Shown here in pieces: positions 7,007-62,638 of a stretch of 64,000 bases of DNA. Both the position numbers and the translations under genes were made by a program. Each line of letters begins with the position of its first letter. Position 1 is the first letter of the stretch. Source of the DNA: Bacteroidales bacterium (GTDB lineage: Bacteria > Bacteroidota > Bacteroidia > Bacteroidales > WCHB1-69); contig JAFYAW010000018.1 of the NCBI GenBank assembly GCA_017540505.1, positions 21,286-85,285 of the forward strand, written 5' to 3'. A model generated the notes under the pieces. The model was given only the letters and a program-made list of their open reading frames with translations. It did no database searches and had not been told where the DNA came from.

Positions 7007-7054
7007 GTTCTCTATCGTTTTTTAATGATTAATAATCCTTTTTAATTTGGGCGG

Positions 7055-7062
7055 CAAAAGTA
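7055..7062 (-). promoter_or_regulatory. -7 box TACTTTTG (minus strand) for rpmB
   Basis: Reverse complement of CAAAAGTA, 49 nt upstream of the rpmB ATG. Confidence 0.55.
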
Positions 7063-7116
7063 CAAAAAAATTCATTCAATCCCAACGTGTTGGTTATTAT
7101 TTTTTTCAACTTTCCC

Positions 7117-10100
7117 TTATTCCTCTAAAATGCAGCGTATCGAGTAGCCGAAATTATCCGCATCCTCCTTTTCTTCCAGTTTGTGGCAGGGGAATGTCAT
7201 GGAGAAGAAGAGCGTGTTTTCGGAGTTTTCGTCGCCGGAAGTGGACCAGAAGCGTGTTTCGCCGAGCAGGTTCTCGAAGCGTTTGCGGGTGCCGTTGTAG
7301 AAGCCGGCGGGCAGTGCCGAGAACTGCGTGCTGTTGTTCCCGCCGCTGTCGTTGATCCAATAGAGGGGCGAGCGCAGGGCGTAGGCCCCGTACAGGCTCA
7401 GTGCTTCATACTGCTCCCGCTCGGGCAGATACCAGCCGTCGGGGCAGATGCCCGGATGGTGGCCTCCGGCGGTGAGGCTGTCTTTCTTCAGGCTGTCCAT
7501 GGCATCGCGCCACGTGTAGAGGCACCCGAAGATGCGGATGTTCTCCAGCGTGTCGGGATACATGTCGGAGGCATATCCCATCACGCGGGGGATTTTCCGC
7601 CCGTCGGCGTAATGCTGCGATTCCAGATTGCGCTGTGTCCAGCAATAATGGCCGATGCGCACTGCCGGATAGATGTTGCCGTCGTAATCCACGGCGTCGG
7701 GGCAGGGCAGGTTGACCCATGGGTCCTGGATGCGCACCAGCACGCTGTCGTGCAGGATGCCGCACCCGCTGCCGATAATGTCAATATGGTACATTCCTTC
7801 ATCAGTCAATGACAATAGTAGATTCACGTCCCGCTGTTGGCTTTCAAATCCGTTGGGCCCTGTCCAGTGGTAGGTGAACTCCTCCATCGCCAGTCCGTGC
7901 AGGTGGCAGGTGTCGCCCACCTCATACCCGACGGTCGCCTCCCCATCCTCCAGCCAGCATTTCCGGATGGATTCCATATCGCTGACACGGAAATTGGTTA
8001 GGAAGTGTGCGTTGCAGGCGTCTTCCATCTGTACGGACATGTTCTGCATGAAACGCAGCGGCACATCCTCGAAATAGCCCGTGCTGTTTTGGGCAATCAG
8101 GGGTCCTTGGCCGTCCGGCTGTGCAAAGAGCCGGTAGATGTAGGGTTCGGAGCCGCCCCGCGCTTTGGAGTGCACGAAGCCTGTGGTATCGGCACTGTTG
8201 CACACATACGAATACAAGTACTTGAAATCCAGCGTGGCCCCGTCCCAATGGATGATGGTGTCCACATGAAAGCAGGGGTTCGTTGGAAGATAGGCATCGC
8301 CGCCTTGCGGCAGGGTGTACATGCTGAGCCGGTAGTCGCCGGCCACGCCCACGAGCAGGGGCTCCCCCTTGACGACGGCGTTGGCGGAATGGATGATGGA
8401 ATCTCCCAAATAGACTTGGAAATAGGTCTGCAGATTCTGGCCTCCCTTGGCGAACTGGCCCGCTATGGGCGTGATTTCCAATCGGGTGCACTGCTGTCGG
8501 AACTGGTAGGCAGGTGGCTCTGCTATCTCCGGCGACTCGCGCAAGAAGTCCTGCACGAGGGTGTCTTTGCTCCGATTGCAGGCCGAGGTGACCACCCACG
8601 TGTACCGCCCGTTGGGCAAAGCGGTGTCACTGAGCAGCAGTAATGGCCGGTTGGACCCGTTATGTTTGTAGGGGATGATTTCAATGTTGGCATGGTTGTC
8701 GGTATTCTGCCGATGGGTGGTTAGGTGGCCGATAGAATCCGTATGTGTGGTGAAGTTGTAGAAGTTGTTCCGCGGACTGCCAACCAACTCTACGGTAACA
8801 TCCCGATACGAGGCTTTGCGTGTGCCGTCCTCGGCACGGGAAAGCCCGTAGGCACCATTGATCTGAAACACGCCGACACCATACCGTCCGTCGGGACAGT
8901 ATTCTTTGAAGTCTTGGGTGGTGGTCGCCCAATCATAATTCCGGTAGTATGAGGCGATACCTCCTCCCGGTTCGGGTTTATATACAATCGTAGTGGCGTG
9001 AACCGGACATCCGTGTGCATCCACTATTTCCACAATCAAGGTGTCGCCAGCATTCACACCAGAGGTGACGTTGGACGATAAGATCCAGGAATAGTCGAGT
9101 GTGGACTCCATGTCGCTGAAAAGCACGGTGTCAGTGGTGGCGTTTGTAACCTTCCATGTTACGGGCAGCGTGACGTAGCTGTGGTACTGCATCCCGACGG
9201 TGCTGTTTGGGATGCCACCCTCCTCAGTCATTAGTGTGTATGCCTTGTCGCTGGGGTGGTTCAGCGAGTCGGCAGGCATGTAGATGTTGACTGGGATAAT
9301 ACGTTGCGAAAACAGTTTCAATCCTGTGATTACATTTTCGTAGCGGGCGGTCTGGTATCCGCAGGTGTCGTAGTATTCTTGTGTTGCCAACACCAGCCGG
9401 TTTACGGGGAGGAGATTGTCTGTTATCTGCCCTTGGGGATAAATGGTAAAATGAAACTCTACCAGTGTGTCTTCGCAGGCTTTGGGTCGTACTTGCATCG
9501 TGATGGGTTTGAACCAGATATTGCAGTAGCAGTTGGCTTGTGACACGGTGTCGCGGATGAAAGTGCCTTGGGTGGATGACGGCGGCAGATTGTACCAGGA
9601 GGTGGTGTCCGGCCCTGTGAGGACGGCGGGATTGAGGAAACGGTATTCGTAAATGGCCTCCCCGGAATAATGGTAGTAGTCGTCGTTGCTTTCGGAGGAA
9701 TATGCCTCTATCAGCATGTTCTTGATAGTGATGACATTATGCGAATAGATGTCGCCGCTGCTGTTTCGGAGCAGGAATTTCTGATTGCGAAGGTTATAAC
9801 GGACCTCTGGTACTGGGGCGGTCAACGCGGGCGTATGATATCCGCACGCGTCGTGGCACAGGAAACGGTATTCGCCCACGGGCAGACTATCTATAGTATA
9901 ATAGTCGCGGAAATCGTAGCGCAGGGGGTCGTCGCCGGTGTGCTGCGGTGATGTGAAGGTGACGCTTCGCCAGAAGAGGGTGTCGCTGCCGCTTATACGG
10001 CTGATTTCCACCGTGTAAGGTAGGGTGCCGCGCTCGATTTTAAGCTGGATCTTGCCGGTGGGCTTGCATCGCAGGGATGGTACGGTGCCGTAAGGGTGCT

Positions 10101-10563
10101 CTCTGGTGAACAGCGGGTATATCACGCCGCTGACAGGGTGCTCGTAGTCGCTCTCCACAAGGACATCCTCCACGGAGTCGGATACCAGGGTGTAGGCGTC
10201 GCCCTGCGACAGGCCGGTCTGGCATAGGGCCGTCACCCGCACTTTGTAATGTCCGGGCCAGAGATGTGTGACGGAGGGGAGTGTGCTCTTCAGGATGGAG
10301 TCCTCGCCTGCGAGCGGGATGTACGCGTAGCGGATCTGTGACAGGCGTGAGCCCGTCGTGTCGTGCAATGTGCAGTGGATTTCACCATCGGCTTGGCATT
10401 TGGCTGGGATAGTGCTGATTTCCAGCCGTATAGGACAGTTTTGCCCCAATAGGCTGCCGATGCAAAATAAAGAATTAATTGTTAAAAATGCACGAAAAAA
10501 AACGGAGAGCCTTTTGACTCTCCGTTTCGTGCTCTTGCCGTTTTGTGATTTTGGTGGGACCAT
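7117..10563 (-). CDS. Large secreted multi-repeat protein with C-terminal FISUMP (Fibrobacter succinogenes major paralogous) domain
   Basis: Signal-like N-terminus. Repeated xxDxxGC modules (DACGYH, DAHGCPV, GSGCGIL). The C-terminal ~200 aa carry YDGNIYPAVRIGHYCWTQRNL...CPDGWYLP...FSALPAGFY...FWSTS...GYSIRC, typical of TIGR02145. Confidence 0.75.
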   Translation of the reverse strand: MVPPKSQNGKSTKRRVKRLSVFFRAFLTINSLFCIGSLLGQNCPIRLEISTIPAKCQADGEIHCTLHDTTGSRLSQIRYAYIPLAGEDSILKSTLPSVTHLWPGHYKVRVTALCQTGLSQGDAYTLVSDSVEDVLVESDYEHPVSGVIYPLFTREHPYGTVPSLRCKPTGKIQLKIERGTLPYTVEISRISGSDTLFWRSVTFTSPQHTGDDPLRYDFRDYYTIDSLPVGEYRFLCHDACGYHTPALTAPVPEVRYNLRNQKFLLRNSSGDIYSHNVITIKNMLIEAYSSESNDDYYHYSGEAIYEYRFLNPAVLTGPDTTSWYNLPPSSTQGTFIRDTVSQANCYCNIWFKPITMQVRPKACEDTLVEFHFTIYPQGQITDNLLPVNRLVLATQEYYDTCGYQTARYENVITGLKLFSQRIIPVNIYMPADSLNHPSDKAYTLMTEEGGIPNSTVGMQYHSYVTLPVTWKVTNATTDTVLFSDMESTLDYSWILSSNVTSGVNAGDTLIVEIVDAHGCPVHATTIVYKPEPGGGIASYYRNYDWATTTQDFKEYCPDGRYGVGVFQINGAYGLSRAEDGTRKASYRDVTVELVGSPRNNFYNFTTHTDSIGHLTTHRQNTDNHANIEIIPYKHNGSNRPLLLLSDTALPNGRYTWVVTSACNRSKDTLVQDFLRESPEIAEPPAYQFRQQCTRLEITPIAGQFAKGGQNLQTYFQVYLGDSIIHSANAVVKGEPLLVGVAGDYRLSMYTLPQGGDAYLPTNPCFHVDTIIHWDGATLDFKYLYSYVCNSADTTGFVHSKARGGSEPYIYRLFAQPDGQGPLIAQNSTGYFEDVPLRFMQNMSVQMEDACNAHFLTNFRVSDMESIRKCWLEDGEATVGYEVGDTCHLHGLAMEEFTYHWTGPNGFESQQRDVNLLLSLTDEGMYHIDIIGSGCGILHDSVLVRIQDPWVNLPCPDAVDYDGNIYPAVRIGHYCWTQRNLESQHYADGRKIPRVMGYASDMYPDTLENIRIFGCLYTWRDAMDSLKKDSLTAGGHHPGICPDGWYLPEREQYEALSLYGAYALRSPLYWINDSGGNNSTQFSALPAGFYNGTRKRFENLLGETRFWSTSGDENSENTLFFSMTFPCHKLEEKEDADNFGYSIRCILEE

Positions 10564-10599
10564 TTTTTTGATATTGGTTAATAGATTTTAATTTCGCGG

Positions 10600-10607
10600 C
10601 AAAGATA
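10600..10607 (-). promoter_or_regulatory. -7 box TATCTTTG (minus strand)
   Basis: Reverse complement of CAAAGATA, 37 nt upstream of the ATG at 10563. Confidence 0.55.
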
Positions 10608-10704
10608 TAAAAATAATTTAAAATACCATTTTATTTGATGAAAAATTTATATAAAATAGTCAAATTTAACAATTAATAGTTAAAAATTCGATTTTTTGTT
10701 GGAA

Positions 10705-10900
10705 GATTAGAGATTGGAGTTTAGAGTTGAGGGAGAAACGTTAAAGTGTTATGGGTCAACAGCTATATCAGGCCATTAAAAAACTAAGAAATTAAGAAGT
10801 TAAGAAACCAAAAACCAATGCTAACAGCCAAAAGCTAATGGCATGTCGTAATCGAAAACCGCAAACCGCAAATCGTAAATCGCAGACTCCAAGCCTACAT
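10705..10900 (-). repeat. Heptanucleotide-phased drifting tandem array (about 28 units), inverted relative to the other arrays
   Basis: Reads in one 7-nt phase: GATTAGA GATTGGA GTTTAGA GTTGAGG ... AACTAAG AAATTAA GAAGTTA AGAAACC AAAAACC AATGCTA ACAGCCA AAAGCTA ... TCGAAAA CCGCAAA CCGCAAA TCGTAAA TCGCAGA. The reverse complement gives the TCTAATC/TCTAAAC/CCTCAAC units seen at 14256 and 53277. Confidence 0.8.
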
Positions 10901-10915
10901 TCTGCCGAAAAGTTG

Positions 10916-10923
10916 TATTTTTG
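10916..10923 (+). promoter_or_regulatory. -7 box TATTTTTG
   Basis: TAnnTTTG 54 nt upstream of the ATG at 10977. Confidence 0.5.
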
Positions 10924-10976
10924 CCGTATGAGATAATTATTTTTAACGTATTATAAGACAATAAGATAAAACAAAA

Positions 10977-12479
10977 ATGAGAAAGTTCTGTTCCCTCTTT
11001 TTTCTGATTCTGACAACGTTGTCATCGTTATTCGCCCAGGAACCGTTGGATGAGCTGCTGGACGGTGGGTTGTCAGGGGTGCCGTTGCACAGCCATTTTG
11101 CCAGTATCGATAACAACCATTATGTCATCTTCTCCAGCGCCTATTTGAATCAGGATGTGTTGGTGACCCTTCCTGAAAATGACGGGAAAGGGTCGCAGGT
11201 GCAGCAGCAACACCCCACAGACTATGTTTTGCTGGTGGCCTACGAAGACGCGAATAACATTCATGGCATTTATAAACATTACAATTACAAAACCCAAACA
11301 TACGGTCTGTACCTGAACTCGTACCAAAAAGCCGCTGCTTCCGCCGAGTGGAAACCGGAAAACCTCATTTCTGTCCCGCTTGACAAGTCGGAGGACATCC
11401 GCGTGCGCAGTGCCGTTTCTCCCGACAGGAGCAAGGCCGCCGTGGCCCTGTTTCTCACCAATTTCAAGGCCAACAGTTTGAAAGGCTCGCTGGTGCTGGC
11501 CTTCGATGAGAACGGCATGCGTTGGAAAAACCCCTTGGATTTGGAATTTGAAAACAATACCATCCAGATTCTCGATTTTGCTGTCAGCAACAATATGAAA
11601 GCTTATACCTCCATTCTCTCGTTCGATAAGGACAAAGATGGGAAACAGCGTGAAAACGAGGTTCTGCATCTATACGAAAGCGGTGAGTATGGGGAACTTA
11701 ACAACGCCGAATGCGCGATAGAGTTCGGCAGTCTTTCGTGCGGACGATTGCTGATGACCAGAAAGGGTGGCGTGATGATGGGCGGCTATTACGCCCCGGA
11801 ACCGGAGAAGAAAGAAACAGGCTGTTACATGGTGCATTATGGTATGAGCCCGCTGGAGTGCGCCAACATCAGTCACGAGGACTTCCCGGAGACCTATTAT
11901 GCGTATGTGCATACCTCAGCAGGCAAGAAGGCAAAGGACTTCTCGGTCTATCCGATGGCTTTCTATGAATTCGCGGACGGCAATGTGGCACTGCTGGGCG
12001 ATATGTACACCACATACAATCTTACCATGACCTTTTCTGCCGGTGGCAACATTGTTATTCACATGGCCGACAGTCGCGGTGACATCACCCAGTTCAAGAC
12101 GGTGGGCAAAATGCAGACCTCGGTGATGGTCTCCCCGCCGGCAAGTCTGAACAAATATTTATTCTCCTATCATGCTTTAATGCACAATGACAAAATACAT
12201 ATCTTTTTCTCGGATAACATCAAAAACTACCAGGGAGGGTCCGGCCAGAACAGTTTCGTGGACGTGAGTATGATGGGGAAAATGCTTTATAAGGGTCATT
12301 GTGCTGCACATTGCACACTGGACCACAATGGGGAGGTCTCCAAACCGGAATTGCTGATGGATTATGCCGACTATGGCGGATATATGATTGCTCCTTTATA
12401 CGTGGAGGACGATGGCTTTGTGTTTTTGAAAACGGGTAAGAAAGCCAGACAAATTGCCAAATTGAAACATTCTTTTTGA
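10977..12479 (+). CDS. Hypothetical secreted protein
   Basis: Signal peptide MRKFCSLFFLILTTLSSLFAQ. Long ORF with backbone-like composition. No family recognised. Confidence 0.6.
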   Translation: MRKFCSLFFLILTTLSSLFAQEPLDELLDGGLSGVPLHSHFASIDNNHYVIFSSAYLNQDVLVTLPENDGKGSQVQQQHPTDYVLLVAYEDANNIHGIYKHYNYKTQTYGLYLNSYQKAAASAEWKPENLISVPLDKSEDIRVRSAVSPDRSKAAVALFLTNFKANSLKGSLVLAFDENGMRWKNPLDLEFENNTIQILDFAVSNNMKAYTSILSFDKDKDGKQRENEVLHLYESGEYGELNNAECAIEFGSLSCGRLLMTRKGGVMMGGYYAPEPEKKETGCYMVHYGMSPLECANISHEDFPETYYAYVHTSAGKKAKDFSVYPMAFYEFADGNVALLGDMYTTYNLTMTFSAGGNIVIHMADSRGDITQFKTVGKMQTSVMVSPPASLNKYLFSYHALMHNDKIHIFFSDNIKNYQGGSGQNSFVDVSMMGKMLYKGHCAAHCTLDHNGEVSKPELLMDYADYGGYMIAPLYVEDDGFVFLKTGKKARQIAKLKHSF

Positions 12480-12496
12480 CGCATCCCCTTTTTTTG

Positions 12497-12504
12497 TATC
12501 TTTG
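12497..12504 (+). promoter_or_regulatory. -7 box TATCTTTG for glnS
   Basis: TAnnTTTG 37 nt upstream of the ATG. Confidence 0.55.
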
Positions 12505-12540
12505 CCGCTTGTTTTTCAAAACTCATAAAACACAGGCCCT

Positions 12541-14172
12541 ATGAATTTCATTGAACAAATTATTGAAGAAGACATACGTAACAACAAGAACGACGCCAAG
12601 GTGCACACCCGATTCCCTCCGGAGCCGAACGGGTATCTTCACATCGGACACGCCAAATCCATCTGCCTGAACTTCGGCATGGCGCAGAAATATGGCGGCA
12701 AGTGCAACCTGCGCTTCGACGACACCAATCCCGTGAAGGAGGACACCGAGTATGTGGACTCCATCCGCGAGGATATCCAGTGGTTGGGTTTCCAGTGGGC
12801 GGCAGAATACTATGCTTCCGATTATTTTGATCAATTATATGCTTGGGCTGAACAGCTGATACAGGAAGGACTTGCATACGTGGACGATCAGACGCAGGAA
12901 GAAATCAGCAAAGGACGTGGCGTGCCTACCGCACCCGGTGAGGAGAGTCCCTATCGCAACCGTACGCCGGAGGAGAACCTCGACCTGTTCCGCCGTATGC
13001 GCGCGGGCGAGTTCCCGGATGGCAGCCGCGTACTCCGGGCCAAGATCGACATGGCCTCCCCGAATATGCACTTCCGCGACCCCATCATGTACCGTATCCT
13101 ACATGCCACCCATCACCGTACCGGCGACAAGTGGTGCATCTACCCCATGTACGACTTCGCCCACGGCCAGAGCGACTCCATCGAGGGCATCACACATTCC
13201 ATCTGCACGTTGGAGTTCGAGGTGCATCGTCCGTTGTACGACTGGTTCTGTGAGGCGTTGCGCATCCATCATCCCCAGCAGATTGAGTTCGCACGGTTGA
13301 ACCTCAACTACACCATTATGAGCAAGCGGAAGCTTTTGCAATTGGTGAAGGAGGGCTATGTGAACGGTTGGGACGATCCGCGCATGCCCACCATCTGCGG
13401 CTTGCGTAGAAGAGGTTACACGGCTGCGTCGCTGCGCAATTTCGCAGAGACCGTAGGCGTGGCCAAGCGCGATAACATCATCGATGTGTCGCTACTGGAG
13501 TACTGTGTGCGTGAGGACCTCAACAAAACCGCCATCCGTACCATGGCTGTGCTCGACCCGGTGAAGCTCATCATCGACAACTATCCCGAAGGGCAAGTGG
13601 AGGAGATGACCGCTGTGAACAACCCCGAGGACCCCGAAGCCGGCACCCGCACCGTGCCCTTCTCCAAGGAACTCTGGATTGAGCGCGCCGACTTCCGCGA
13701 AAACGCCGACAAGAAATTCTATCGCCTCTCCATCGACCGGGAGGTCCGCCTCAAATACGCCTACATCATCAAATGCACCCATATTGTGAAAGATGATGCC
13801 GGCAACATTACGGAAATTCATTGCACTTACGACCCGATGACCAAGAGCGGCATGCCCGACAGCAACCGCAAGGTGAAAGCCACCATCCACTGGGCCTCTG
13901 TGCAACATGCCCGCAAGGCTGAAATCCGCCTTTTCGACCGTCTCTTCAGTGTGCCCGATCCCGACAACTGCGAGGAAGGACAGACGTTCCTCGACCATCT
14001 CAACCCCAACTCCCTCGTGGTGCAAGAAGGCTGGATCGAACCCACCCTCACCCTCGACAAGGCCATGCAGATTCAGCACTTCCAGTTCGAGCGTCTCGGC
14101 TATTTCTACGCCGACCCCGACTCCACGGAAGAACGTCTCGTGTTCAACAAGACCGTAAGTCTGAAGCAGTAA
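12541..14172 (+). CDS. glnS: Glutamine--tRNA ligase
   Basis: Class I HIGH motif ([14 protein letters not shown]), KMSKS-type motif (IMSKRKL), GlnRS-like C-terminal domain. Confidence 0.92.
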
Positions 14173-14178
14173 TTGTCC

Positions 14179-14290
14179 ATTGGGATTTGGGTATTGTGGA
14201 ATTAGGCTTTGGCCATTAGCCGTTAGCTATTGGCTTTTAGCTTTTAACTTTTAACTCTAAACTCTAATCTCTCAACTCTAAACTATTAAA
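14179..14290 (+). repeat. Heptanucleotide-phased drifting tandem array (16 units) filling the glnS-downstream spacer
   Basis: ATTGGGA TTTGGGT ATTGTGG AATTAGG CTTTGGC CATTAGC CGTTAGC TATTGGC TTTTAGC TTTTAAC TTTTAAC TCTAAAC TCTAATC TCTCAAC TCTAAAC TATTAAA. Confidence 0.85.
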
Positions 14291-52420: not shown

Positions 52421-53134
52421 ATGGGTACAACAGGAATGATATGGGATGATGCGTCGCCGGTGACGTTGGAAAAGCCGGCGGCGGTGGAGATTGTGCATCA
52501 TGGTGTGTCCGTGGCCCTCATTGCGGATGATATGCCTCTTGGCGATTTCGCGTGGATTACGCCGAACGCGGTCCGCACGTTAGTGGAGAATCATGTCAAA
52601 GTCTATATGCAGCGCGGCTTTGCGGAACATTCGCCCTACTCGGATATGGATTATGCCGATGTGGGGGCGGAGTTCGAGGACGAGTTTGTGCGGTTGGCGG
52701 CAATGTCGCCCCTGTTAGTGAAGTTCATGCCGTTCACGGAGGAGCAGATCGGGCAGATGCGCGAGGGGCAGATCATCCTCTCCACGCAGCAGGCCGCGCA
52801 GATGAGCCTCCCGCAGGTGGAAATGCTTCTCCGCAAGAAAATCTCCGCGTTGGCCATGAATCTGATACGCGATGCGCAGGGCCTCTCCGTCACCGACAGA
52901 ATACTTTCGGAGACCATCACCCCGGTAGGGTTAGGCATCGCATTGTCCAATTTTGTGCTTCCGATGATTTTGAACATCCTGTTCAGTCCGCGCTTCCGCT
53001 TCGCCCTGCAGCGCACGCCAGCCCTGATGCAGAGCGTCTATTGCTACGACGGGCACCTGTGCAACGCGGAAATGGCCGAACTGCTCGGCCTGCCATGGAA
53101 GGACATCGTAACGCTTTGCTGGGATTTGAATTAG
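52421..53134 (+). CDS. Hypothetical protein (weak resemblance to an alanine dehydrogenase/PNT N-terminal domain)
   Basis: 237-aa ORF directly after tsaE. The N-terminal half is weakly AlaDH/PNT-N-like and the C-terminal half is hydrophobic. The call is tentative. Confidence 0.45.
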   Translation: MGTTGMIWDDASPVTLEKPAAVEIVHHGVSVALIADDMPLGDFAWITPNAVRTLVENHVKVYMQRGFAEHSPYSDMDYADVGAEFEDEFVRLAAMSPLLVKFMPFTEEQIGQMREGQIILSTQQAAQMSLPQVEMLLRKKISALAMNLIRDAQGLSVTDRILSETITPVGLGIALSNFVLPMILNILFSPRFRFALQRTPALMQSVYCYDGHLCNAEMAELLGLPWKDIVTLCWDLN

Positions 53135-53136
53135 AA

Positions 53137-53318
53137 TTGGCTGTTGGCCGTTAGCTGTTGGCTATTGGGATTTGGGATTTATGTTAATGCCTGAATAAGG
53201 TTGACCGTTGGTCACTATTCACTGATCACTATTCACTGATCACTGATCACTGGTCTTAGTTCCTTAACTCCTCTCAACTCTAATCTCTAAACTCTCAACT
53301 CTAATCTCTCACCTCTTA
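53137..53318 (+). repeat. Heptanucleotide-phased drifting tandem array (about 26 units) filling a convergent intergenic spacer
   Basis: TTGGCTG TTGGCCG TTAGCTG TTGGCTA TTGGGAT TTGGGAT TTATGTT ... GTTGACC GTTGGTC ACTATTC ACTGATC ACTATTC ACTGATC ACTGATC ACTGGTC TTAGTTC CTTAACT CCTCTCA ACTCTAA TCTCTAA ACTCTCA ACTCTAA TCTCTCA CCTCTTA, all in one phase. Confidence 0.85.
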
Positions 53319-54844
53319 ATCGGCAGATAGATGACGAATGTGCTGCCCTTGCCCTCCTCGCTCTGCACCTGGATTTTGCCTTTGTGCAAGGAGACGATTT
53401 TCTTCACATAGCCAAGTCCGAGGCCGTAGCCCTTCACGTTGTGCACGTTGCCTTTGGGCACGCGGTAGAAGTTGTCGAAAATGTTGGCGATGGCCTTCTT
53501 GGGGATGCCGATACCCTTGTCGGTGACCGAGAGCAGGAAATACTTCTCGTCCGACTGCGTGTTGATAAGGATCTCGGGTGCCCCTTGCGAGTATTTGATG
53601 CCGTTTTCCACCAAATTGACAATCACATTGGCCAAATGGGAGCGGTCGCCGAAGATCTTGTAGGTGTCGGCGTTCAGGGCCAAGGAGAGCGTCCCGTTGG
53701 TGGATGAGATCTGCAGGGCGATGTTGTCCGAAACCTTGTGGATGAGCTCGTGCATGTCCAAAAGCTCGATGTTCATCTTCACCTGTCCTTTTTTCAGTTG
53801 AGCAATCTGTAAGATGTTGTTGACCATGTTTTTGAGACGGTCGTTTTCGTCACGGATGATGGAGACATAGCTCTCTAAGATGTCGGCGTCGTTGCGCATG
53901 ACGGGGTCGGTGAGTGCCTCGCAGGCTAACGAGATGGTGGAGATCGGGGTTTTGAACTCGTGGGTCATGTTATTGACGAACTCGTTGGTGACCTCCGACA
54001 GTTTTTTCTGGCGGTACAGGGAGAACAGGGCGGTGAAGGAGATGGTGAAGCAGATGATCAGGAAGATGAGGATGAGGCCCACGATGGTGCTCATACGCTG
54101 GAGGAAGATGCCGCGTTCGGCGGGGAAGTGGAGGATGATGTAGTGCGGCGCGCTCACTTTCTCGTTGAATTTCAGACGGAAGACGTAGTCGCTCTTGAGC
54201 ATCTGCTCGGGCTGGGTGAATTCCGGCTCAACGACGAAGTCGGTGGTGAAGGCGTTGTAAAGGGCGAAGTCGAAGCGTGCGGTGATGTTCTCGGCGGCCA
54301 AGGCATTCTCGATGACCTCGTGAAGGAATTCGGCGTTCAGCAGGGCCACGGTCTGGCTGTCGAGCTGGATGAGGTTGGCATCGCGGGTGTTGTTGATCAG
54401 CAGGGTAGTAGATTTGGTGTTCTTGGGTGACCACGGATCGTTGTTGACGGGGAAGAGCTGCCGGTAGGACTCGCTGAAATACTCGGTGTCGCACTCCATA
54501 AGCCGGGAGTTGTTCTCCTTGACGAAGATGACCGCCTTGATGACGCCGATGGGCTGTTGCGTTACGGTGTCGAGCAGGAATTTGCGGGTGTGCATGGTGG
54601 AGACCACATCCGTGGTGTCGGCGGCGGTGAGCTTCCCTACGGCTTCCGCCATGGCCACTGTGTCGTTGAGGATGGTGGCGTCAATCTGGTTGACGATGGC
54701 ATCGCCGGCCGTCAGCACCTCGTTGACGAAAATGCTCCGCTGCACCTTCTCCGCTTCCGTGTAAAGCTTGAAAATGGACAGGATCAGCGGGATGGAGGTG
54801 ATGCCGACAATGAAGAACAAGGCTACGATGATACGTTTTTTCAT
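53309..54844 (-). CDS. Sensor histidine kinase
   Basis: Two TM segments; H-box (NMTHEFKTPISTI); N, G1 and G2 boxes (NLVENGIKY, DKGIGIP, GYGLGL). Confidence 0.88.
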   Translation of the reverse strand: MKKRIIVALFFIVGITSIPLILSIFKLYTEAEKVQRSIFVNEVLTAGDAIVNQIDATILNDTVAMAEAVGKLTAADTTDVVSTMHTRKFLLDTVTQQPIGVIKAVIFVKENNSRLMECDTEYFSESYRQLFPVNNDPWSPKNTKSTTLLINNTRDANLIQLDSQTVALLNAEFLHEVIENALAAENITARFDFALYNAFTTDFVVEPEFTQPEQMLKSDYVFRLKFNEKVSAPHYIILHFPAERGIFLQRMSTIVGLILIFLIICFTISFTALFSLYRQKKLSEVTNEFVNNMTHEFKTPISTISLACEALTDPVMRNDADILESYVSIIRDENDRLKNMVNNILQIAQLKKGQVKMNIELLDMHELIHKVSDNIALQISSTNGTLSLALNADTYKIFGDRSHLANVIVNLVENGIKYSQGAPEILINTQSDEKYFLLSVTDKGIGIPKKAIANIFDNFYRVPKGNVHNVKGYGLGLGYVKKIVSLHKGKIQVQSEEGKGSTFVIYLPIKR

Positions 54845-62540: not shown

Positions 62541-62638
62541 GTTTGGGAATTGGAATTTGCGGTTTCGGTTCCCGATTCTATGTTCTCAGTTCTTAGGTCT
62601 CCGTTCTATGTTCTTTGTTCTTCGTTCTTTATCCCCCA
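62541..62638 (+). repeat. Heptanucleotide-phased drifting tandem array (14 units)
   Basis: GTTTGGG AATTGGA ATTTGCG GTTTCGG TTCCCGA TTCTATG TTCTCAG TTCTTAG GTCTCCG TTCTATG TTCTTTG TTCTTCG TTCTTTA TCCCCCA. Confidence 0.8.

Follow-up and report, generated by a model that had tools for sequence, protein, structure and literature searches.

The repeat array at positions 10699-10886 of the DNA analysed here (a stretch of 64,000 nucleotides, referred to below as the window) is built of two arms that face each other, and the same layout is displayed by the array family to which it belongs. It is one of some 190 intergenic arrays of 7-bp tandem repeats in its genome, members of a known but unexplained heptameric class of bacterial repeats. 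Our preferred proposal, that such arrays are slippage-prone filler which persists only where its orientation suits the expression of neighbouring genes, seems to us evenly balanced between right and wrong. A new finding is that an element of the IS3 family, which occurs across Bacteroidota, lies directly beside heptad arrays whatever the sequence of their units; a literature search on the association of insertion sequences with heptad arrays retrieved no paper.

The array occupies part of a 413-bp spacer (10564-10976) between two divergent genes, a minus-strand gene for a 1148-aa FISUMP-domain protein (7117-10563, with the start at 10563 being that of the longest ORF) and a plus-strand gene for a 500-aa secreted protein (10977-12479). 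Direct reading of the sequence places a Bacteroidota-type -7 box, TATCTTTG, at 10600-10607 on the minus strand, 37 nt upstream of 10563, and a second one, TATTTTTG, at 10916-10923 on the plus strand in front of the secreted-protein gene; both are present as claimed in a sequence-only reading of the window made earlier. The distance from the end of the array to the plus-strand -7 box is 30 bp. A scan for σ70-type promoters gave no score exceeding those of shuffled sequences.

Identity at lag 7 over positions 10705-10900 is 0.49, versus 0.28 ± 0.03 in shuffled sequences (none of 5000 shuffles reached 0.49), and TRF finds three arrays within the stretch. The period-7 repetition reported by the sequence-only reading is thus above chance. 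The 28 units sharing one phase that it described are instead five pieces, with heptad blocks in three registers (1, 5 and 4 mod 7) and partly non-repetitive DNA: three blocks have period 7, one has period 8, and 42 bp are not periodic at all. The outer block of the left arm (10699-10732) consists of four to five heptads TTTAGAG/ATTAGAG/TTGAGAG (lag-7 identity 0.67; TRF 10699-10728); its bottom strand contains 13 C and no G, the G-bearing strand being the top one. It is followed by the non-periodic insert (10733-10774), where lag-7 identity (0.34) equals background, and by a period-8 block (10775-10807; TRF period 8, 4.1 copies, lag-8 identity 0.80), which is a degenerate minus-strand copy of a dispersed block, CTTAACTCCTTAGTTCCTTAACTTCTTAAC. 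The inner block of the right arm (10808-10852) holds degenerate GCYNTTR heptads on the minus strand (GCTAAYR; lag-7 identity 0.50), with in-register matches at 10822, 10829 and 10836 that read CAACAGC, CAAAAGC and TAATGGC on the top strand. The outer block of the right arm (10853-10886) is made of five heptads AAAYCGY on the top strand (AAAYCGC-type; lag-7 identity 0.81; TRF 10856-10884), which belong to a GCGATTT/ACGGTTT class on the minus strand. Single strands of the region 10695-10895 are unstructured (fold z-scores +1.10 and +0.04), which rules out a structured RNA from the array; no Rfam family scored above threshold in the array, the only sub-threshold match being to PreQ1 (E = 0.28).

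The host genome is that of a ruminant-gut Bacteroidales (2.5 Mb, 51 contigs, 51% G+C). Scanned for self-identity at successive lags, it yields 123 regions of period 7, versus 0-18 for each other period from 4 to 12. The unit classes, named here by short labels and given in one-strand notation, are GCG (DCGRTTT), GGG (GGGRWTT), GCY (GCYNTTR), TCT (GKTCTHN), CACT (TCACTRN), CTCT (CTCTMAH) and TTAAG, a period-8 CTTARNTN block; in the array at 10699-10886 the outer block of the left arm is of class CTCT on the minus strand and the period-8 block is of class TTAAG. At least two tandem hits of these classes were called an array, and genes were called with a crude custom finder based on ORFs and codon usage. 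The genome contains 835 module hits in 191 arrays, versus 51 hits in a reversed-sequence control. The arm classes were set by eye ahead of the tests, and only the class-free and stop-codon tests presented below are free of that choice.

Adjoining runs of different heptad classes share one strand in 38 cases and differ in 3. When array copies were collapsed to 41 clusters and the window's own contig was left out, the shared strand was retained at 31:3 (p = 8e-7), and a common order, GCG/GCY/GGG followed by TCT/CACT, the TTAAG block and CTCT, was seen at 26:4 (p = 6e-5). Pairwise orders were GCY before CTCT in 9:0, GCY before GGG in 8:1, GCG before TCT in 5:0, TTAAG before CTCT in 7:0 and TCT before TTAAG in 4:0. 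The window itself houses three sister arrays. The first, at 14179-14290, fills the spacer downstream of glnS and reads GGG, GCY, CTCT. The second, at 53129-53326 in a convergent spacer (the 53137 array below), reads GCY, GGG, a solo right inverted repeat (IRR), CACT, TTAAG, CTCT. The third, at 62541-62638, reads GGG/GCG, TCT and abuts a REP-like hairpin. The sequence-only reading had claimed that the reverse complement of the array under study repeats the module order of these three plus-strand arrays, and formal alignment bears this out: collinear scores were 84, 96 and 61.5 for the arrays at 14179, 53137 and 62541, respectively, compared with 41, 44 and 21.5 in the opposite orientation, and the order outperformed 500 permutations of 7-mer blocks (p = 0.006, 0.002 and 0.006). 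A 237-aa protein encoded next to the 53137 array had no exact database match.

To describe the layout, we use the term G-type for a strand on which GCY, GCG and GGG units are read directly and CTCT, CACT, TCT and TTAAG units as their complements. The G-bearing strand of every arm, which is poor in C, has its 5′ end at the outer edge and its 3′ end toward the middle of the array. In arrays with both kinds of arm the G-type arm comes first in 29 cases out of 29, and inverted pairs of a single class (GCY+/GCY- 4:0, CTCT-/CTCT+ 2:0) have the same layout as the two-arm arrays. A stringent class-free test of arm order gave 7:0 in the host genome and 3:0 at loci of other genomes. It follows from the 29:0 ratio and the class-free tests that the "module order" is that of two arms facing each other. 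The array at 10699-10886 obeys the rule, with the G-type strand on top over 10699-10807 and at the bottom over 10808-10886. Since the arms face each other, the order of units looks identical whichever strand the array occupies. The intrinsic polarity proposed by the sequence-only reading therefore survives as a module order conserved throughout the genome, and not as a head-to-tail polarity. Its companion claim, that polarity is independent of flanking genes, holds for whole arrays, which lie on the same strand as co-directional flanking genes in 28 cases and on the opposite strand in 29; it does not hold for single arms, each of which is oriented by the nearest gene boundary. Whole-array orientation showed no dependence on whether local GC skew was positive or negative (Fisher p = 0.36, a coarse test in a genome of 51 contigs). 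Within the arms the order is nested, with GCY outside GGG, and CTCT outside TTAAG outside TCT. A single continuous lattice with a fixed register between classes was rejected, since the offsets of GCY-to-CTCT junctions vary among loci.

The influence of gene boundaries is most evident at stop codons, where 71 of the 75 modules located within 20 bp read inward. When the module next to a stop codon (at most 80 bp away) is GCY, it is in the sense orientation at 33:1, CTCT is antisense at 23:1, and CACT (11:4) and the TTAAG block (12:4) lean as CTCT does. Expressed by position, the G-type strand is the top one in runs nearer a left gene boundary and the bottom one in runs nearer a right boundary; this applies to tandem and convergent spacers and is weaker in divergent ones. 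Beside gene starts the rule is weaker (50 of 73), and the left side of divergent spacers does not follow it (5:8). In a class-free test on period-7 tiles, the inward strand had more G than C in 82:41 cases at 3′ ends and 65:23 at 5′ ends, compared with 173:172 and 266:181, respectively, in array-free spacers. Arrays of a single class follow the stop-codon rule as strongly as composite ones. Arrays lie a median of 15 bp from stop codons and 83 bp from start codons, and 9 of 108 arrays lie inside predicted coding sequences. Among spacers of at least 60 bp, arrays are present in 16.8% of convergent, 11-14% of tandem and 6.3% of divergent ones; the array at 10699-10886 thus belongs to a rare class.

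One can imagine that arrays positioned in this way act as bidirectional transcription insulators whose outward-read, C-rich strand serves as a rut-like loading site for Rho; they would protect genes and promoters against transcription that arrives as read-through or in the antisense direction and, in the spacer studied here, would shield two divergent promoters from each other. We consider this improbable, although several observations speak for it. The outward-read strand is rich in C (28%) and poor in G (12%), versus 20% each in intergenic DNA (the CTCT, GGG, CACT and TTAAG arms have 0-5% G on this strand), and the single strands of the array are unstructured, which is what is expected of a rut site. 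The orientation of modules by stop codons and the enrichment of arrays in convergent spacers also agree with insulation, and rho is present in 15 of 15 relatives from the genus. However, rho (searched for as Rho_RNA_bind) was not found in the host assembly, which is 91% complete. GCY, the most abundant class, is nearly balanced in G and C and yet has the strongest orientation bias. An array with the C-rich arm first would insulate at least equally well, and so the 29:0 order is not predicted. The sense RNA just after stop codons might have been expected to be the C-rich, rut-like one; it is the G-bearing strand that is found there. Convergent spacers obey the orientation rule, which a simple Rho-based filter fails to explain. 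Finally, cyanobacteria follow the rule and, to our knowledge, they, including Nostoc, have no Rho.

The solo IRR within the 53137 array, TGTTAATGCCTGAATAAGGTTGACCG (53182-53207, plus strand), marks the switch point between its two arms and matches exactly the IRR of five copies of an insertion sequence of the IS3 family. About 1.45 kb long, this element carries orfA with an HTH_Tnp_1 domain (E = 2.8e-7) and orfB with an rve domain (E = 2.9e-20), has an A-run frameshift site between the two frames, and is bounded by 26-bp TG...CA inverted repeats with a 3-bp target duplication, as is characteristic of the IS3 family. Seven IRR copies are present in the genome (five in IS copies and two solo), and all seven have GCY/GGG heptads outside, in one orientation; outside three of the four left ends there are CACT, TCT or TTAAG heptads. 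The 3-bp flanks can be paired at three pairs of contig ends (GTA/GTA once and TTG/TTG twice). From the different heptad classes outside the two ends and the paired flanks it follows that the IS sits at the switch point between arms.

The element is not confined to the host. At least 113 stretches from across Bacteroidota contain its inverted-repeat motif, and at 29 of 77 such ends the adjoining 45 bp hold a period-7 array, compared with 19 of 1540 random windows of the same loci; lags 6 and 8 are found beside 0-1% of the ends. The heptad units beside the ends differ completely from genome to genome. At least seven complete copies outside the host genome have 3-bp duplications directly at the inverted repeats. 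In a Cyclobacteriaceae genome one and the same array class lies outside the IRR of each of the five IS copies and of both solo IRRs nearby, a count that leaves out an IR-like site with two mismatches at 1782003. No close homologues of the transposase were found among 30 relatives at E ≤ 1e-60. Insertions are located at array edges or at junctions between arms. A tentative idea suggested by these observations, and one we rate as possible though doubtful, is that a heptad array, whatever its units, puts the DNA into a physically different state which cells and mobile elements are able to recognise.

A trace of such an element can be discerned in the array under study. Local alignment of the minus strand at 10753-10779, TTAATGGCCTGATATAGCTGTTGACCC, to the IRR and left inverted repeat (IRL) of the IS3-family element scored 27-29, versus a shuffle mean of 15 (p = 0.001), and 16 of 17 positions of the same segment agree with the terminal inverted repeat of a MITE-like element on another contig (C24:28520-28880). 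The segment has the orientation common to all IRR copies of the genome, with the outer end toward the GCY side. Judging from these alignments, the insert within the array is a decayed insertion-sequence end. Part of what had been described as array is thus such a remnant, which the sequence-only reading missed.

The arrays might themselves be fragments of one composite mobile or copy-and-paste element, similar to a BIME or MITE, with polarity and nested order inherited from a master copy; the gene-boundary rule would then be a by-product of where insertions survive. We regard this, too, as unlikely. Clear paralogues among arrays do exist and form three clusters with at least 85% identity over at least 90 bp. 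A paralogue of the 53137 array at C5:131820-131970 (C5:131842) is three 7-bp indels apart from it, and the two share the order GCY, GGG, solo inverted repeat, CACT, TTAAG. The 30-bp TTAAG block is found in 23 copies with no more than 5 substitutions in the genome, 5 of them perfect. TCT arrays travel with REP-like hairpins (6 of the 11 REP tags in the genome lie directly 3′ of TCT arrays). The nested order within arms is conserved, and it points to some descent from composite ancestors, which it fits better than an orientation filter. On the other hand, the arrays lack bounding terminal inverted repeats and target-site duplications, which also excludes their membership among MITEs, and the registers of inter-class junctions vary by locus. 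The stop-codon rule is equally strong in single-class arrays. Most arrays have no conserved flanking anchor motif: the only conserved motifs enriched at array ends were REP and GGGGATTCCGC boxes, which are confined to a few 3′ ends. The homology between paralogous arrays stops inside the arrays. Among 201 sampled Bacteroidales genomes, 26 have arrays of four GCY units without other modules; most of these arrays are simple or form inward-facing pairs. GCY next to GGG, in either order, was not encountered in five array-rich Bacteroidales genomes; junctions of GCY with a following CTCT were found in only two genomes besides the host, and the multi-class grammar was seen only in the host genome, one relative from the genus and one other genome.

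We compared the locus in related assemblies. Seven assemblies of the same strain from other samples have at most 6 mismatches in 6.5 kb; a SNP at 10834, present in four of them, is the sole difference in the array, and the other three are identical across the spacer. The 53137 array is identical in five same-strain assemblies. With no length variation at 12 loci over the two arrays, a phase-variable contingency locus can be rejected. In lineage L020, where the 500-aa protein is 92% identical, the corresponding position is occupied by an array of like orientation with both of its ends kept; its interior has been rebuilt and still follows the grammar, with the segment 10733-10807, and hence the insert 10733-10774, missing. 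Lineages L021-L024 lack both the FISUMP gene and the array; they have a different segment beside rpmB, and homology returns at a point 8 nt upstream of the -7 box. The array is therefore part of a strain-variable segment that carries the FISUMP gene as well. L023 is a recombination mosaic (98-100% identical over 10977-13176 and about 85% identical beyond), which weakens the case for wholesale swapping of arrays between close strains. In L023 and L024 the glnS spacer contains a (TTAATTR)x7 array in place of the 14179 array. Taken over all loci, arrays have changed by gain and loss of units, by internal insertion and deletion, and by copying between loci. The -7 box TATTTTTG is conserved in L020-L024 and in two species at whose orthologous loci protein identity is 60%, and in congeneric species (at most 60% protein identity at the locus) there was no array upstream of the conserved promoter. 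Among the metagenome contigs scanned, no relatives of the 500-aa neighbour protein were found.

The position of the array between two promoters, 30 bp from one of the -7 boxes, could also be taken to mean that it is an operator-like array coated by one or more heptad-binding proteins that regulate both divergent promoters. The omega repressor of pSM19035 binds WATCACW heptads, which the CACT class presumably resembles, and the recognition of arrays of any unit sequence by an IS family means that a common bound factor could exist. Even so, we find the operator reading very unlikely. The same classes fill about 190 spacers, mostly just past stop codons, and divergent spacers are the least often occupied. 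The orthologous promoter apparently works without an array in other lineages and species, and the interior of the array is not conserved in L020 in spite of the similarity of the neighbouring protein. A search of the genome for Omega_Repress homologues gave no match, and neither did control genomes. Since both arms lie upstream of promoters and the promoter seems to function arrayless elsewhere, a locus-specific regulatory role of the array is unlikely; since the two promoters are arranged back to back with both arms upstream of them, the array is probably not transcribed. As to the order of units being a chance product of low-complexity, AT-rich intergenic DNA, to which we give almost no credence, the units are indeed short and degenerate, the classes were defined by eye and the 28-unit lattice did include non-repetitive DNA, but the enrichment of period 7 alone, the reversed-sequence control, the independent contigs, the block permutations and the class-free tests all refute it.

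Intergenic heptamer repeats have reportedly been noted since 1990, when Mazel is said to have described the STRR heptamers of cyanobacteria, and their over-representation was reportedly shown in 2007. Transcription of most repeats is counted among the features of the bacterial intergenic heptameric SSR class; we know of no accepted function or origin for such repeats. The arrays of the host genome have the features of this class: over-representation of 7-nt units, intergenic location near ORF ends, a strand rule and no leading- or lagging-strand preference. The closest counterparts are the intergenic G-rich heptamers GGGAATC of Xanthomonas and GGGGA(C/T)T of Nostoc, whose G-rich strand is sense within 50 bp after a stop codon and antisense within 50 bp before an ORF; about one-third of them lie on each strand between aligned ORFs, 16% are convergent and 7-8% divergent, and they show no leading- or lagging-strand bias (Rehm et al. 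2015, PMC4692102). The arrays described here are likewise dispersed intergenic tandems of 7-nt units with the same strand rule and lack of strand bias, and the context proportions are nearly identical (counts of 28/29/13/9). In contrast to those repeats, at least seven unit classes coexist here, most of them are not G-tract repeats, a G-quadruplex would be conceivable from the sequence only for short GGGATTT blocks, and the arrays are two-armed with a nested order.

TAACTGA and mixed heptamer direct repeats have been described in Beggiatoaceae, Cyanobacteria and some Bacteroidetes (MacGregor 2015, PMC4679880). The TAACTGA and STRR heptamers resemble the present arrays in being intergenic, oriented by gene ends and furnished with stop codons in all frames, in having indels in 7-nt steps between close strains and mixed heptamers in one spacer, and in their patchy phylogeny. 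Unlike the present arrays, which hug stop codons, they are located mainly directly upstream of start codons, where a translational role has been proposed, and no ordered two-arm layout has been described for them. The REP and BIME elements of enterobacteria and pseudomonads are targets of the insertion sequences IS1397, ISKpn1 and ISPsy8 (Tobes and Pareja 2006, PMC1525189). Like the arrays, they are extragenic at the 3′ ends of genes, form mosaics of a few modules in a defined relative orientation, and serve as specific landing sites of IS3-family elements in a fixed orientation. The units here are, however, non-palindromic tandem heptads without a stable hairpin, and only the TCT subclass is linked to REP-like hairpins; judging by the fold z-scores of 10695-10895 the array is not a REP or BIME. 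Contingency SSRs are also tandem short repeats near promoters or gene ends, but the arrays described here lie outside coding and core promoter sequence and have no length polymorphism; their constant length among same-strain assemblies shows that they are not contingency loci. Relative to known heptamers, what is new is the IS-end remnant, the IS family that targets arrays, and the two-arm description of multi-class arrays.

We return to the reading preferred here, in which the arrays would be filler DNA without a locus-specific regulatory role and their orientation would be constrained by the neighbouring genes. According to this proposal, the RNA just past a stop codon would have to be the G-bearing strand, and the RNA leaving an array toward a gene would be the unstructured, C-rich and G-poor one; arrays in the wrong orientation would be lost or would never arise. 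If, on the other hand, heptad arrays were the distinct state of DNA tentatively suggested above, the inward layout of the G strand, seen here and published for Xanthomonas and Nostoc, would go back to a single mechanism by which arrays originate or act at gene boundaries, and candidates would be boundary insulation or 3′-end-directed synthesis, as in head-to-head telomere fusions; the alternative would be unrelated slippage events.

The host genome is an unusually rich case among genomes with heptamer repeats. The coexistence of at least seven unit classes in it makes the layout rule visible and testable without knowing what the units do, and the rule recasts a puzzling "module order" as something that any genome can be examined for. 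The landing sites of the IS in arrays provide a practical reason for the breaks of draft assemblies at such spacers. An IS family that lands on arrays throughout the phylum is, moreover, a natural probe for the property that these arrays have in common.

In the genome of the window (G000), an IS3-family insertion sequence invariably lies where the two arms of an array meet, and always in a single orientation. Its inverted repeat (IR) is TGTYAATGCCTGAAWWAGGTTGACC, the element is about 1.36-1.48 kb long, and its copies carry 3-bp target duplications. IR sites or copies were located at window positions 53182-53207 and, on other contigs of G000, at C29:1-1362, C3:25777, C6:42512, C9:117-142, C16:90289, C25:116-141, C33:14484, C41:114-139 and C50:112-137. 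The element with this IR is spread throughout the Bacteroidota (loci L045-L124). Period-7 arrays directly abut 29 of 77 of its IR ends, compared to 1.2% of random windows, and the array units beside it are unrelated in sequence. We found no literature description of an IS3-family element adjoining heptad arrays. Terminal inverted repeats related to those of the IS3-family element, GGCAATGATATAGTTGTTGACC, bound a roughly 360-bp MITE-like element (C24:28520-28880), whose interior contains GC-rich hairpins; solo ends of this element are present at C5:160645 and C29:52828-52846.

A 30-bp period-8 block, CTTAACTCCTTAGTTCCTTAACTTCTTAAC, which is far more conserved than the heptads, occurs at 23 sites in G000 (for example, C4:13206, C6:21139, C16:33448, C21:49111 and C41:174), five of them perfect. 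It is seen in both orientations relative to adjoining heptads of the GCY and GGG classes and is often followed by TATA; a degenerate copy lies at window positions 10775-10807. On the 3′ side of GCG-type arrays (C33:676, C45:20065 and C30:80521, among others), the box TCGGCACCYTRAATRTTTGGRGATTCCGC is conserved. Downstream of G000 arrays, two 8-mers, GGGATTCC and GATTCCGC, show an enrichment of about 15-25-fold.

On the minus strand, the -7 box (10600-10607) is followed after about 70 nt by a terminator-like hairpin of 13 pairs with a U-run (10499-10528), which lies in the extra N-terminal part of the longest FISUMP ORF (1148 aa versus 1110 aa in the NCBI call). The hairpin, which is kept in the L020 lineage, may act as an attenuator in the leader or mark where a small RNA ends. 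A search of the whole G000 assembly (91% complete) did not detect the Rho RNA-binding domain (PF07497), probably due to an assembly gap; each of the 15 genomes sampled from the genus has an open frame of 605-708 aa at the Rho match.

The FISUMP gene and the array form a strain-variable segment (7007-10908); in the lineage represented by L021-L024, its place is taken by 495 bp that contain a 92-aa ORF. The adjacent 2.2 kb (10977-13176), which cover the gene for the 500-aa protein and the 5′ portion of glnS, are 98-100% identical between lineages that otherwise show about 85-93% identity, which points to a recent recombination tract that ends at the array.
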